A stretch of 64,000 nt of DNA from a virus. Made by a program: the position numbers and the translations under genes. Of this stretch, positions 39,816-43,109 are shown in pieces; within the stretch, counting starts at the first letter, position 1; the number at the start of each line of letters is the position of its first letter. The stretch is from UHGV virus genome UHGV-0236300; one strand, given 5' to 3'. The notes below the pieces were generated by a model. That model saw only the letters and a program-made list of their open reading frames with translations. It searched no databases and was not told where the DNA came from.

Positions 39816-40166
39816 TTACTGCAACAGTTTTTCAATAGCCGCTTCCATGCTGCTTGCAACAGCCTGAACTCGGATATTCATCTCTTCTTGGCGGATCAGC
39901 TCCTTAAGCTCTTTAACGGTAAATTCTTTAGAGAAACCTTCCACCATAATCTTGTGCAAGGCTTCTTGCGTGTCTACTTGCAAGAACTTTTCCAGTTTGT
40001 TGGCAGAGGCCTCTAAATCGGCCCGAATACGTGGGTCATCTGTTCGGTTCAGCATTAGGCGTAAGCCATCAAGATTGGTAGAAATAGCGTCTGCATGTTG
40101 AGTAACCAACCGTGGCAAAATGAGATCTACAAACTTACTGGCTAAATCAATACGCTCTTGTGTCAC
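39816..40166 (-). CDS. hypothetical protein
   Basis: GTG start overlapping stop of upstream small basic ORF. Confidence 0.45.
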   Translation of the reverse strand: MTQERIDLASKFVDLILPRLVTQHADAISTNLDGLRLMLNRTDDPRIRADLEASANKLEKFLQVDTQEALHKIMVEGFSKEFTVKELKELIRQEEMNIRVQAVASSMEAAIEKLLQ

Positions 40167-40276
40167 TGTTGCACCCCCTCTTCATCTTCATGATATTTCT
40201 TTTCACGCTTGTGTTTTTTCTTAAGCTCAAGCGCAATCTCTTTCTTGTACGCCTTCTTCAAGGCTTTTTTAGCCAT
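40163..40276 (-). CDS. small lysine-rich basic protein (37 aa)
   Basis: RBS GGAGGTG; MAKKALKKAYKKEIALELKKKHKREKKYHEDEEGVQQ. Confidence 0.35.
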   Translation of the reverse strand: MAKKALKKAYKKEIALELKKKHKREKKYHEDEEGVQQ

Positions 40277-40338
40277 TTGGCACCTCCTCTGCTTTCATTA
40301 TGATAATTATAACCAACTTATCAAAGCTTTGTCAACGA

Positions 40339-40812
40339 TTAGTCAACCTGAACCCAACCGCCTGCTACCTTTTTAAACATTCTTTGGTTATCGCTGCCTC
40401 GGAATGGTTTCTTTGTTGGTAAATCTTTTACATACTTTCCATCAATGACGATATCAGCCAGTTTAAGAACATCACTAGAGATATGCTCAAATGTGAACCC
40501 AGTATACACAAGAATAGTTTTCTTGTCACCAAACTTTTCCTTAATTCTCCTCATAAGGTCTATAATACCTGGCTCATTATAAGGAGCCAAAGGCTCTCCA
40601 CCAAGTAAAGAAATACCGCATACAGATTCATTGTCTAAATCCGACAAAATTTTCTGCAAATCTTCTTCGGTGAACTCCCTTCCTTTATCTTTTGACCAAA
40701 ATGCTTGATTAAAGCAACCAGGACAAGCGTGTGGGCACCCAGATACCCACAAAGCTGTCCTAATGCCTGGCCCCTCGGTGTAAGATATCTCTGTATACCC
40801 GACAATATTCAT
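40339..40812 (-). CDS. nrdG: anaerobic ribonucleotide reductase activating protein (radical SAM)
   Basis: CPHACPGC cysteine cluster; T4 NrdG-like length; start taken at MNIVGY. Confidence 0.8.
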   Translation of the reverse strand: MNIVGYTEISYTEGPGIRTALWVSGCPHACPGCFNQAFWSKDKGREFTEEDLQKILSDLDNESVCGISLLGGEPLAPYNEPGIIDLMRRIKEKFGDKKTILVYTGFTFEHISSDVLKLADIVIDGKYVKDLPTKKPFRGSDNQRMFKKVAGGWVQVD

Positions 40813-40925
40813 ACGTACTCCGCATCGCATTTAGGACAATGCCAAATAAAATCGTCCAGTGCCTTACACCAACGAAGATTGCAATGACAACCACACTTGC
40901 AAATTTTATAAATACCTGTAGACAT
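40809..40925 (-). CDS. small Cys-rich zinc-ribbon protein (38 aa) between nrdD and nrdG
   Basis: RBS AGGAGG 6 nt before ATG; MSTGIYKICKCGCHCNLRWCKALDDFIWHCPKCDAEYV; stop overlaps nrdG start (ATGA). Confidence 0.5.
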   Translation of the reverse strand: MSTGIYKICKCGCHCNLRWCKALDDFIWHCPKCDAEYV

Positions 40926-40988
40926 ATTGCACCTCCTAGTTTACTGTGTGACAACAATATGCCACATCCTTGTGACTTTTGTCAAGTA

Positions 40989-43109
40989 TCAGCAACCACA
41001 ACTTCCGTAGTGCTTAACCCGTTCTATAACCTCAGCCTGCTTACCCTTATTGTAAGGGCGGGAGTTTGGACTAGACAGATACCCGGATACGCGTCTGATC
41101 ACACTGATCGTTCCTTCTTCATGGTTTCCACACTCTGGGCATACAAAGCCTTTAGCTGTTGCACTGAACTCGCCAGAGAATCCACACTTAAGACATTTAT
41201 CCACAGGCTGGTTAATACCAAAATACATAATGTGTTTATACCCGAAATCGACAAGAGCTTCTAAAGCATCTAAGTTGTTTTTCAGGTTAGGTGTTTCTAT
41301 GTATCCAATGTTGCCGCCAGAAGAGATCATAGCAAAACCTTCCTCATACTTCCACTTGTCAAAAGGTGAGCTATTGATCCACACGGGTTGGTGGAAACTG
41401 TTGGTAAGGTATTCGTGCTCGTGCTTCAACACTTCAGGATATTCACGATCTAGACATGTTGCAGCCTTATAGCACAAGCTCTCTGAAGGAGTGCCGTACA
41501 AGCTGAATGCCAGACCACTTTCTTTTTTGTACCGATCACAAGCATCTTTCATGTGTTGAAGGATCCCAAGAGCTAAGGACTTGTCTCCCTCTCTGCCTAA
41601 AATCTGGCAGGTTTCATACACACCAATATACCCAATACTTATGGAAGCATACCCGTCATAGAAGAGTTTATCAATACTCTCTTCAGGATCCAGGCGAGCA
41701 AGGGCCCCTTCACACCACATGATGGGGTTCTGCCCTGCCTTTGTTCCTTTTAGACGGTTAACTCTTACAAGGTGAGCCTCGTATGCCAGATCCAAGTACT
41801 CGTCAAGAACTGCAAAGAAATCAACACCTTCCGTTTTAGCTTTTGCCGCAATCATTGGTAGGTTAAGGCTAACAACACCCAAGTTGAATCTGCCAAGGTA
41901 TTTTTCATCACCCTCCGAGGTAACGTATTTGCCAAGGAACGACCTACATCCCATGCTTGTTACTTTGCCATCTGTTGAACCTGTCACTTTACGATTTAGC
42001 GGAACAGAAACAAAGTCAGGATAAATCCGCTCTGCAGAGCATTCTAGGGCCAATCGTTTCAAATCATAGTTAGGATCCCCAGGGTTCATGTTGACACCAT
42101 CTTCTAAGAAGAACAGCACTTTAGGGAACACAGGCGTGATCCGTTCTTCACCAAGACCCATTTTGTGGACTTTCAAGTAGTTTTTGGTAATCATTCTACC
42201 AAAGACCGAAGTATCCAGCCCTAAACTTAATGTGATGAATGGGGTTTGCCCGTTGACAGAAGTTAACGTATTGATTTGGTAGAGCAAAGTTTGCATACTA
42301 TCAAACACGTCTTTATCGGTCATTTGCATTGCAACAGTCTCAGCATCTGGCAACCAATGTTCCTGACAAAATTTAAGGTTCTTCTCATAAGTTGCTTCAG
42401 CATATTGTGCCAGATAATGATCAATATGGCTCATAGTTTGACCACCATATTGAGCACTAGCTACTGCACTAGAGATTTGACTAAGGATTGTTGTTGCAAC
42501 CCCTATTGACTTCGGCTTACTGACATGGGCGTTGCCAATGTTGAATCCGTTTTCCAGCATATCCGGATAATTTACCAAACAACAGTTTGTTAACGGACTG
42601 ATCAGGTAGTCAAGATCATGCACATGGATGAAGCCCTTGTTGTGCTCTTCTGAGACACGATCTGGCAGGATCTGTGTTGATGCAAGGTGTTTGCTAAGGA
42701 TGCCTGCAAGCAGGTCACGATGAGTGTGTACATGATTAGTAGGCTTATTTGCGTTTTCTTTTGTAAATTCATCACAAGTACGATCCAAAAAGCCACTAAT
42801 ATCTGCAAGCAGTTTTCCACCTGCCTCTCTGTTATTATCTCTTGTCTGTCTATACTGGATGTATTCTCTGGCTGCACATTTTAAACCCATATCCATAAGA
42901 GCATCTTCAACAAGGATATGGATATTTTTTACAGAGATCGTGCACTGGTCGGTTGGCAGATTGTTGGCAACAACTTCATTAACCGCGCAGGCAATCCGGT
43001 AAGCTTCTTCTTCAGTATGCCCAGACTCAAGTAAGGCGGACTCTGCCGCCTTGATCACCTTAATTCCGTTATAAAACTCTTCTCTACCGTCCCGTTTTAC
43101 AACTTTCAC
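40989..43109 (-). CDS. nrdD: anaerobic ribonucleoside-triphosphate reductase
   Basis: Collinear with T4 NrdD as recalled; C-terminal Cys cluster and glycyl-radical-like RRVSGYL; GTG start overlapping upstream stop. Confidence 0.85.
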   Translation of the reverse strand: MKVVKRDGREEFYNGIKVIKAAESALLESGHTEEEAYRIACAVNEVVANNLPTDQCTISVKNIHILVEDALMDMGLKCAAREYIQYRQTRDNNREAGGKLLADISGFLDRTCDEFTKENANKPTNHVHTHRDLLAGILSKHLASTQILPDRVSEEHNKGFIHVHDLDYLISPLTNCCLVNYPDMLENGFNIGNAHVSKPKSIGVATTILSQISSAVASAQYGGQTMSHIDHYLAQYAEATYEKNLKFCQEHWLPDAETVAMQMTDKDVFDSMQTLLYQINTLTSVNGQTPFITLSLGLDTSVFGRMITKNYLKVHKMGLGEERITPVFPKVLFFLEDGVNMNPGDPNYDLKRLALECSAERIYPDFVSVPLNRKVTGSTDGKVTSMGCRSFLGKYVTSEGDEKYLGRFNLGVVSLNLPMIAAKAKTEGVDFFAVLDEYLDLAYEAHLVRVNRLKGTKAGQNPIMWCEGALARLDPEESIDKLFYDGYASISIGYIGVYETCQILGREGDKSLALGILQHMKDACDRYKKESGLAFSLYGTPSESLCYKAATCLDREYPEVLKHEHEYLTNSFHQPVWINSSPFDKWKYEEGFAMISSGGNIGYIETPNLKNNLDALEALVDFGYKHIMYFGINQPVDKCLKCGFSGEFSATAKGFVCPECGNHEEGTISVIRRVSGYLSSPNSRPYNKGKQAEVIERVKHYGSCGC

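Follow-up and report, generated by a model that had tools for sequence, protein, structure and literature searches.

Between the genes for the catalytic subunit (nrdD) and the activase (nrdG) of an anaerobic, class III ribonucleotide reductase (RNR), the virus genome UHGV-0236300 carries a 38-codon open reading frame (ORF), which raises the question of whether so short a frame is a gene at all and, if so, whether its position tells what its product does. The stretch of DNA analysed, here called the window, is 64 kb long and comes from an rV5/FV3-like Vequintavirus; its nrdD–nrdG region is 96.5% identical to that of phage FV3, and 122 phage records match. The original prediction described the ORF as an unannotated zinc ribbon coupled to nrdG and proposed, from its placement, a small metal-binding accessory of the anaerobic RNR. 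The best explanation of the evidence assembled here, to which a probability of about 0.55 can be given, is that the ORF encodes a portable, translated, metal-binding zinc-ribbon miniprotein of 36–54 residues, with seven invariant Cys residues and a conserved partner beyond the NrdG of the phage.

On the minus strand, the gene order is nrdD, a 63-nt gap, the 38-codon ORF, and nrdG. The ORF (40925..40809, minus strand) encodes MSTGIYKICKCGCHCNLRWCKALDDFIWHCPKCDAEYV, followed by a stop codon, and is preceded by the Shine-Dalgarno (SD) sequence AGGAGG (40932..40937, minus strand), a 6-nt spacer (TGCAAT), and the ATG at 40925..40923. Its stop TGA (40811..40809) overlaps the nrdG ATG (40812..40810), which begins the reading MNIVGY, as ATGA (40809..40812, minus strand); these features are all in the sequence as originally described. 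The call of a coding sequence for a Cys7 zinc-ribbon-like miniprotein (40809..40925, minus strand; 38 residues, stop included) draws on the sequence itself, a match to the family phrog_20137, the pattern of selection, and a predicted fold.

The length of the ORF is not significant by itself, because 120 ORFs of at least 25 residues occur in 9 kb. The arrangement AGGAGG-N6-ATG, on the other hand, is found at five sites in the window against 0.57 expected, a number reached in 0 of 100 shuffles, and none of the 10 Vequintavirus-like copies compared lacks a strong SD (AGGAG or GGAGG core). Selection was estimated by the Nei-Gojobori method over 32–33 core codons of 14 miniprotein copies taken from fetched loci. 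The ratio of nonsynonymous to synonymous change (dN/dS) is 0.03–0.13 for divergent pairs, with dS saturating in the most distant pairs; variable sites are distributed 10/4/24 over the three codon positions (chi-square p = 2e-4); and all seven Cys codons alternate between TGT and TGC, with Cys always kept. Stop codons interrupt the +1 frame in 6 of the 14 copies and the +2 frame in every one, and across 16 variants 22 residues are invariant, including the seven Cys, two Trp, Gly, and Pro. In the divergent loci L007 and L011, the miniprotein core is 82–85% identical, compared with 70–86% for NrdD, 52–55% for NrdG, and 48–50% for PhoH—that is, the core is conserved about as well as the catalytic NrdD and far better than NrdG or PhoH. 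These patterns mark the ORF as a real, strongly constrained gene that looks translated, and the peptide sequence itself appears to be what selection acts on. Two natural variants were also seen: in P0014 (62 residues), a deletion variant, the first 20 miniprotein residues are fused to the C-terminal part of a 78-residue ORF found in rV5-type genomes, and in P0003 (61 residues, phage Alma) the last residues are replaced via read-through or frameshift. Unless these are assembly errors, phages can now and then do without the intact miniprotein.

The miniprotein has been catalogued before. Its match to phrog_20137 is full-length (38 of 38 positions, E = 6.3e-30, 103.9 bits), and it thereby belongs to a family already present in PHROGs, RefSeq, and UniProt, which is functionally uncharacterised and probably mislabelled. 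Members are annotated as coding sequences in JES2013 (gp108), NHEP1 (CDS0062), and V18, usually under the names "ribonucleotide reductase" or "hypothetical protein," and a UniProt/BFVD member from phage A51.2, A0A9E7SGM6, is named "Uncharacterized protein." The gene is absent from the annotations of FV3, PDX, and ECML-10, so that the ORF is rightly called unannotated for these three and wrongly so for JES2013, NHEP1, and others. In FV3, nrdG is annotated 18 nt too long and overlaps the miniprotein; in rV5, the RefSeq entry rv5_gp109, "ORF 114" (L021 3436-3663), is out of frame with the conserved 38-residue gene (L021 3501..3617) and is probably a mis-annotation, because that frame has stops in 6 of 14 homologous copies. 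The PHROG label "ribonucleotide reductase" most likely reflects guilt by association: it implies an enzyme subunit, whereas the miniprotein is without an RNR domain and the family has members in RNR-less phages. No functional study of the family was found in the literature; the rV5 genome paper names only the RNR subunits, without discussion of the miniprotein ORF (PMC3606486), and in the CRISPRi-ART paper phage EdH4 was used for selected genes only (PMC11879866).

By tblastn, the miniprotein is found at 87–100% identity in ~120 Vequintavirus records, where the gene is nearly universal rather than patchy, and at 74% identity in one podovirus, vB_EcoP_ACG-C91. A search of a 5.8e9-cluster protein database with an alignment as query returned 14 clusters. 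The family takes four forms, of 38 residues, 41 residues (with CKHCGC), 53–54 residues (with a Lys/Glu-rich tail), and 36 residues. When 1.84e9 representatives were searched exhaustively with a HMMER profile, only two real ones emerged, and scans of viral, metagenome, and genome collections added only Vequintavirus-like contigs. No miniprotein match was obtained by blastn in 5,426 Escherichia coli genomes, and a host origin or prophage copy was rejected on this result; no credible match was present in 185,579 species genomes. Taken together, these searches define a narrow, coliphage-only orphan family, confined to Vequintavirus, a sister lineage, and a few SP6-like podoviruses. Two candidate members were rejected, namely P0015, a tandem-repeat artefact, and a Thorarchaeota match (L027), which has only the knuckle FIWYCPKC in common. 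Some 18 UNVERIFIED "Campylobacter phage" records of the MG0656xx series (e.g., MG065690.1, here L006) represent ordinary Vequintavirus genomes that share 92% identity with E. coli phages, and their host assignment is doubtful.

What kind of protein is encoded can be approached from its predicted structure. AlphaFold2 (AF2), given the family alignment, yields a three-stranded sheet (strands 16–20, 25–30, and 35–37; predicted local distance difference test [pLDDT] score of 72–80 in the core), with one Cys knuckle before strand 1 and one between strands 2 and 3; the 54-residue long form has the same core, preceded by a Lys/Glu-rich N-terminal tail of low confidence. The top Foldseek matches in the PDB are all zinc ribbons—RPB9, the NudC-type Nudix ribbon (3cng), and ZifS (8yoz)—at a template-modelling (TM) score of ~0.7 and a root-mean-square deviation of 1.1–1.5 Å over 32–34 residues, a query this short giving no significant E-value (all at least 0.47). 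The second knuckle, IWHCPKC, is identical to one in ribosomal protein eL43, as a profile search of PDB sequences showed. The zinc ribbon that had been read from the sequence is thus supported by the same three-strand topology in two AF2 runs, by the top structural matches, and by a typical CPxC knuckle, and a zinc-ribbon-like fold can be assigned with moderate confidence (pLDDT 67–69). The seven Cys residues are invariant in 16 of 16 variants. Judging by strand positions and spacing, C13/C15 of the knuckle before strand 1 and C30/C33 of the CPxC knuckle would hold one Zn, and C9, C11, and C20 may form a second site or a site bridging to a partner; the miniprotein is a putative metal-binding protein.

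Searches for a more specific identity were negative. Pfam, NCBIfam, and PADLOC scans gave no family at E ≤ 10; neither the short nor the long form matched any anti-phage defence (PADLOC) model at this threshold, the rubredoxin profile PF00301 did not match, and neither Pfam nor NCBIfam linked the miniprotein to rubredoxin, ferredoxin, YfaE, or NrdI. Remote-homology searches as a whole (Pfam, NCBIfam, PADLOC, PDB profiles, HMMER against the 1.84e9 representatives, and BFVD and PDB folds) returned only the miniprotein's own family and generic zinc ribbons. That seven Cys residues in 38 lie directly upstream of a radical-SAM gene also calls to mind a precursor of a ribosomally synthesized and post-translationally modified peptide (RiPP), that is, a Cys-rich peptide modified by the adjacent enzyme, as in SCIFF/ranthipeptide systems. 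This origin is scarcely credible, however: the neighbour is a bona fide NrdG equivalog of 157 residues, above the TIGR02491 cutoff and lacking a SPASM or twitch domain; NCBIfam gives no SCIFF/RiPP match at E ≤ 10; the podovirus and rV5-type contexts described below have no adjacent radical-SAM gene; and the predicted fold is a zinc ribbon.

Comparison with known small metalloproteins places the miniprotein near, but not within, several classes. It shares the three-stranded sheet and two Cys knuckles of the classical C4 zinc ribbons (RPB9/TFIIS-type, eL43/L37ae, the NudC-type Nudix ribbon, and Thermus ZifS), but has seven invariant Cys residues instead of four, arranged in a C-x(1,2)-C-G-C-x-C cluster, is free-standing at 36–54 residues, and shows no detectable sequence homology to them. 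The haloarchaeal small CPxCG-related zinc-finger proteins are of similar size class and have CPxC-type knuckles, and one of them (PDB 8q5b) is the best PDB sequence match, at a non-significant E = 0.15; the match spans 22 positions and is limited to the N-terminal tail and first knuckle of the long form, and the organisms are unrelated. The C-terminal zinc ribbon of NrdD (C-x2-C-x14-C-x2-C) would have the same ligand spacing if C13/C15 and C30/C33 are the ligands of the miniprotein, but BLASTP against the last 70 NrdD residues gave no alignment at E ≤ 100, and the idea that the miniprotein is a split-off copy of this ribbon was rejected. Rubredoxin, YfaE, and NrdI offer a functional analogy only, as small metallo- or flavoproteins, the latter two encoded in RNR operons; by direct reading the knuckles are rubredoxin-like, but the inter-knuckle segment is far shorter than that of rubredoxin.

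Whether the miniprotein belongs functionally to the anaerobic RNR is best judged from its neighbours. In the window, nrdD (40989..43109, minus strand) is uninterrupted and encodes a class III catalytic subunit of 706 residues (NF006732, 824 bits; PF13597, Gly_radical, and ATP-cone present), ending at 40989, 63 nt upstream of the miniprotein ATG; nrdG (40339..40812, minus strand) encodes the class III activase, of 157 residues (TIGR02491, 152 bits against a cutoff of 126; PF13353, 3.9e-43). The start of nrdG is placed at MNIVGY (40812) and not at the upstream ATG at 40830, because the NrdG models (TIGR02491) align from residue 3 and because the JES2013-type sequence (L002), by direct reading, has an in-frame TGA within the upstream extension MRCGVR. 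This FV3-type arrangement, with nrdD, the gap, the miniprotein, and nrdG joined through ATGA, accompanies an nrdG allele that is present at ≥90% identity in ~86 records. The rV5-type genomes (rV5, A135, and two metagenome contigs) differ: the miniprotein ends in TAA, ~385 nt before an nrdG that is only 54% identical, and the spacer holds a 34-residue Lys-rich ORF followed by a 78-residue ORF that is itself coupled to nrdG through ATGA. The 78-residue ORF is annotated as "putative minor capsid protein." The nrdG loci compared are window 40339-40812 (minus strand), L021 3617-4475, and L006 3116-3974. Because the flanking NrdD and PhoH are 97–99% identical, the rV5-type arrangement is an allelic replacement of nrdG, with two alleles in Vequintavirus genomes that otherwise share 97–99% identity. 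The two NrdG proteins hardly differ over their last ~25 residues, and those of the window and rV5 not at all, which suggests that recombination had one of its boundaries within nrdG. A sister lineage (L007, L011, and L012) has the long form, coupled there to a third nrdG allele. The miniprotein is therefore retained with three nrdG alleles, staying 82–91% identical while the NrdG alleles are 52–57% identical. A covariation of residue 32 (K/E) with the nrdG allele was considered and rejected, not being strict and being broken by L026 and P0002.

Across phages, the miniprotein does not as a rule co-occur with nrdD and nrdG: NrdG is found in 2,238 phage records, and the miniprotein in only ~122. 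Of the other operons inspected, those of two T4-like phages have nrdD overlapping nrdG directly, which leaves no room for an intervening ORF, and four phi92-like genomes show the NrdG match overlapped by the annotated nrdD. Coupling of the miniprotein to nrdG is specific to one allele, and the ORF is not a general part of phage nrdDG operons; the coupling that had been predicted holds in the window and fails in the rV5-type genomes.

A different context is found outside the myoviruses. In SP6-like podoviruses (ACG-C91 and L008–L010), the order is a nucleotide kinase (DUF3310), the miniprotein, and an ATP-dependent DNA ligase, again with an ATGA overlap. In ACG-C91, the miniprotein amounts to a precise insertion of 108 nt when compared with LL11 and SP6, in which kinase and ligase adjoin, and among ~57 phage records with a ligase at least 95% identical, tblastn detects the miniprotein only in ACG-C91. 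The ACG-C91 genome has no RNR, tblastn of NrdD, NrdG, NrdA, and NrdB giving only spurious matches. Thus, the miniprotein gene can move as a cassette between unrelated phages of myovirus and podovirus lineages. Conservation of the ORF between nrdD and nrdG, named as a check in the original prediction, holds in ~120 Vequintavirus records, but is not matched in the two T4-like phages inspected, which lack the ORF, or in podoviruses, which carry it beside the ligase. In SP6-like podoviruses, the content of the kinase/ligase junction varies, small translationally coupled genes being present or absent: SP6 and LL11 have none (L019/L020 ~899-901), ACG-C91 has the Cys7 miniprotein (L004 3998-4108), and vB_EcoP_R has an unrelated 57-residue ORF, R_9 (L018 731-904).

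A feature common to most of these contexts is the 3′ end of the gene, GCG/ACG-GAG-TAY-NTA-TGA, which places a GGAG and an ATGA overlap ahead of two unrelated downstream genes. The overlap at the junction with the downstream gene (GTGA in L011) is present in the FV3-type and L007-type arrangements and before the ligase in podoviruses, and is absent from the rV5-type. In the window, by direct reading, GGAG (40818..40821, minus strand) lies within the Ala/Thr-Glu codons of the miniprotein, 5 nt before the nrdG ATG, and may serve as the SD of the downstream gene; the GCG/ACG-GAG codons are invariant in 14 of 14 copies, ligase-linked ones included. It could be asked, then, whether the ORF is purely a leader, with only its translation mattering as a means of feeding ribosomes to nrdG or ligase. 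The strong SD of the ORF and the conservation of the overlap and internal GGAG before two unrelated genes would agree with such a role, which is nonetheless very improbable in view of the low dN/dS (~0.05–0.1), the 22 invariant residues, the intact miniprotein of rV5-type genomes so far from nrdG, and the direct coupling of kinase to ligase in SP6 and LL11 without any miniprotein.

Mobility raises a further possibility, that the ORF is a selfish or homing-associated element of no use to the phage, spread horizontally with free-standing homing endonucleases or as a target of theirs. Directly upstream of the miniprotein, three different endonuclease-like genes have inserted, in typing phage 14 (L005 279-1439), A135 (L006 1982-2947), and L011 (4279-4971), at a position equivalent to ~40926-40955 of the window, between the nrdD stop/promoter-like element and the miniprotein SD. 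Two of the inserts are members of a single family marked by repeated HGDKYDYS modules; DUF723 and HNH_3 domains occur in the third. These three inserts mark the site as a homing hot spot, as is the nrdD/nrdG region in T4-like phages (PMC2988022). Inserts also split nrdD in FV3, L007, and L011, and nrdD is intact in the window. Both the different endonuclease-like genes and the sporadic, precise insertion in one Vectrevirus branch, with ACG-C91 alone among the ligase-sharing records, would suit a selfish element. A functionless passenger, however, would not be expected to show strong purifying selection on amino acids together with saturated synonymous change; moreover, the exhaustive profile search gave no endonuclease-domain similarity, and the gene is nearly universal in the genus. 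We therefore consider a selfish origin quite improbable.

The gap upstream of the miniprotein also contains a sigma-70-like promoter candidate (40956..40985, minus strand), TTGACA-N18-CATATT with an extended −10 TG, which matches the consensus at 10 of 12 positions and is conserved in rV5. It is a candidate only, because promoter-like matches are not enriched in the region (7 against 5.9 in shuffles). An RNA element in the gap was rejected (fold z-score −0.02); a hairpin there is terminator-like but weak (6 pairs) and overlaps the promoter-like site.

A rival that accords with the position of the gene is an accessory of the class III RNR. In this account the miniprotein would bind Zn or Fe and help the anaerobic reductase, possibly both phage and host NrdDG, either by delivering electrons to the [4Fe-4S] cluster of NrdG or by chaperoning NrdD–NrdG docking and glycyl-radical formation. 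Class I RNR operons encode small redox helpers, the 2Fe-2S ferredoxin YfaE in the class Ia operon and the flavodoxin NrdI in class Ib; to our knowledge, no comparable helper has been described for class III. The rubredoxin-like appearance of the knuckles (C-x-x-C-G in the long form and W-x-C-P-x-C), the constant site directly after nrdD in ~120 Vequintavirus genomes and the divergent L007/L011/L012 lineage, the ATGA coupling in the FV3-type and L007-type arrangements, and the presence of NrdDG in the podovirus hosts all speak for such a role. On the other side stand the lack of the ORF in the T4-like and phi92-like nrdDG operons inspected, the uncoupling in rV5-type genomes, where a different ORF of 78 residues is coupled instead, the persistence of the miniprotein across swapped NrdG alleles, its presence beside the ligase in podoviruses without RNR, and the absence of a rubredoxin or ferredoxin match in Pfam or NCBIfam. 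T7/SP6-like phages, furthermore, obtain their deoxynucleoside triphosphates mainly from degraded host DNA. An RNR accessory is thus possible but unlikely, and an accessory role does not follow from placement as had been suggested, given that RNR-less podoviruses carry the gene and the other phage nrdDG operons inspected do without it; that the miniprotein serves class III RNR in electron transfer or assembly is a minority hypothesis, now weakened. More doubtful still is the specific proposal that the miniprotein is the first dedicated class III RNR accessory, a rubredoxin-like or zinc-bridging protein that promotes NrdG-dependent glycyl-radical formation on NrdD and acts on the host enzyme as well; if it were true, podoviruses without RNR would have acquired the miniprotein because the accessory also acts on the host RNR.

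The explanation favoured here, a portable zinc-ribbon miniprotein with a partner other than the phage NrdG, would run as follows. The gene would be an accessory cassette occupying translationally coupled slots in nucleotide- and DNA-metabolism operons of E. coli phages: in Vequintavirus and its sister lineage the slot follows nrdD, and in a few SP6-like podoviruses it separates nucleotide kinase from DNA ligase. In the window, the miniprotein would be translated from its own strong SD, possibly on transcripts from the sigma-70-like promoter just after nrdD, and its 3′ end would supply the GGAG and ATGA overlap that let ribosomes pass to nrdG. Its conserved surface (NLRW and LDDFIW) would most likely bind a conserved partner that any infected E. 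coli cell provides. That this partner is the phage NrdG in particular is improbable, because the miniprotein survives nrdG replacement, uncoupling, and transfer to RNR-less phages.

Several points weigh against this explanation. Throughout ~120 Vequintavirus genomes, no gene other than a homing-endonuclease insert ever separates it from nrdD, and such a constant position fits an RNR-linked role at least as well. E. coli, the host of the podovirus carriers, has its own NrdDG, and for this reason the lack of RNR in the podoviruses fails to refute an RNR target. The set of divergent copies is small, comprising 14 sequences in four forms, and the Zn assignment and the division of the Cys ligands rest on a medium-confidence model (pLDDT 67–69) and motif spacing.

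Two further features were noted downstream of nrdG. A perfect 12/12 sigma-70 consensus, TTGACA-N18-TATAAT (40306-40335, minus strand), lies directly downstream of nrdG and corresponds to the annotated rV5 promoter P118. A second tiny ORF of 37 residues (40163-40276, minus strand; MAKKALKKAYKKEIALELKKKHKREKKYHEDEEGVQQ) also has a perfect AGGAGG-N6-ATG, with its SD at 40283-40288; its conservation in rV5 and A135 is 100%, and it runs into the start of the next ORF, of 116 residues, and is Lys/Glu-rich, resembling the N-terminal tail of the long-form miniprotein.

Overall, the locus provides an example of a real small phage gene that has been handled inconsistently, being omitted in FV3, placed in the wrong frame in rV5, and named "ribonucleotide reductase" by PHROG-based pipelines without evidence, and correcting its annotation is of practical value. 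Conservation near the level of NrdD, combined with movement as a cassette between lineages, suggests a specific and probably host-directed interaction. Should the partner prove to be the anaerobic RNR, the miniprotein would be the first accessory factor known for a class III RNR; should it be another host protein, the miniprotein would join the few of its kind in phages that have been characterised.

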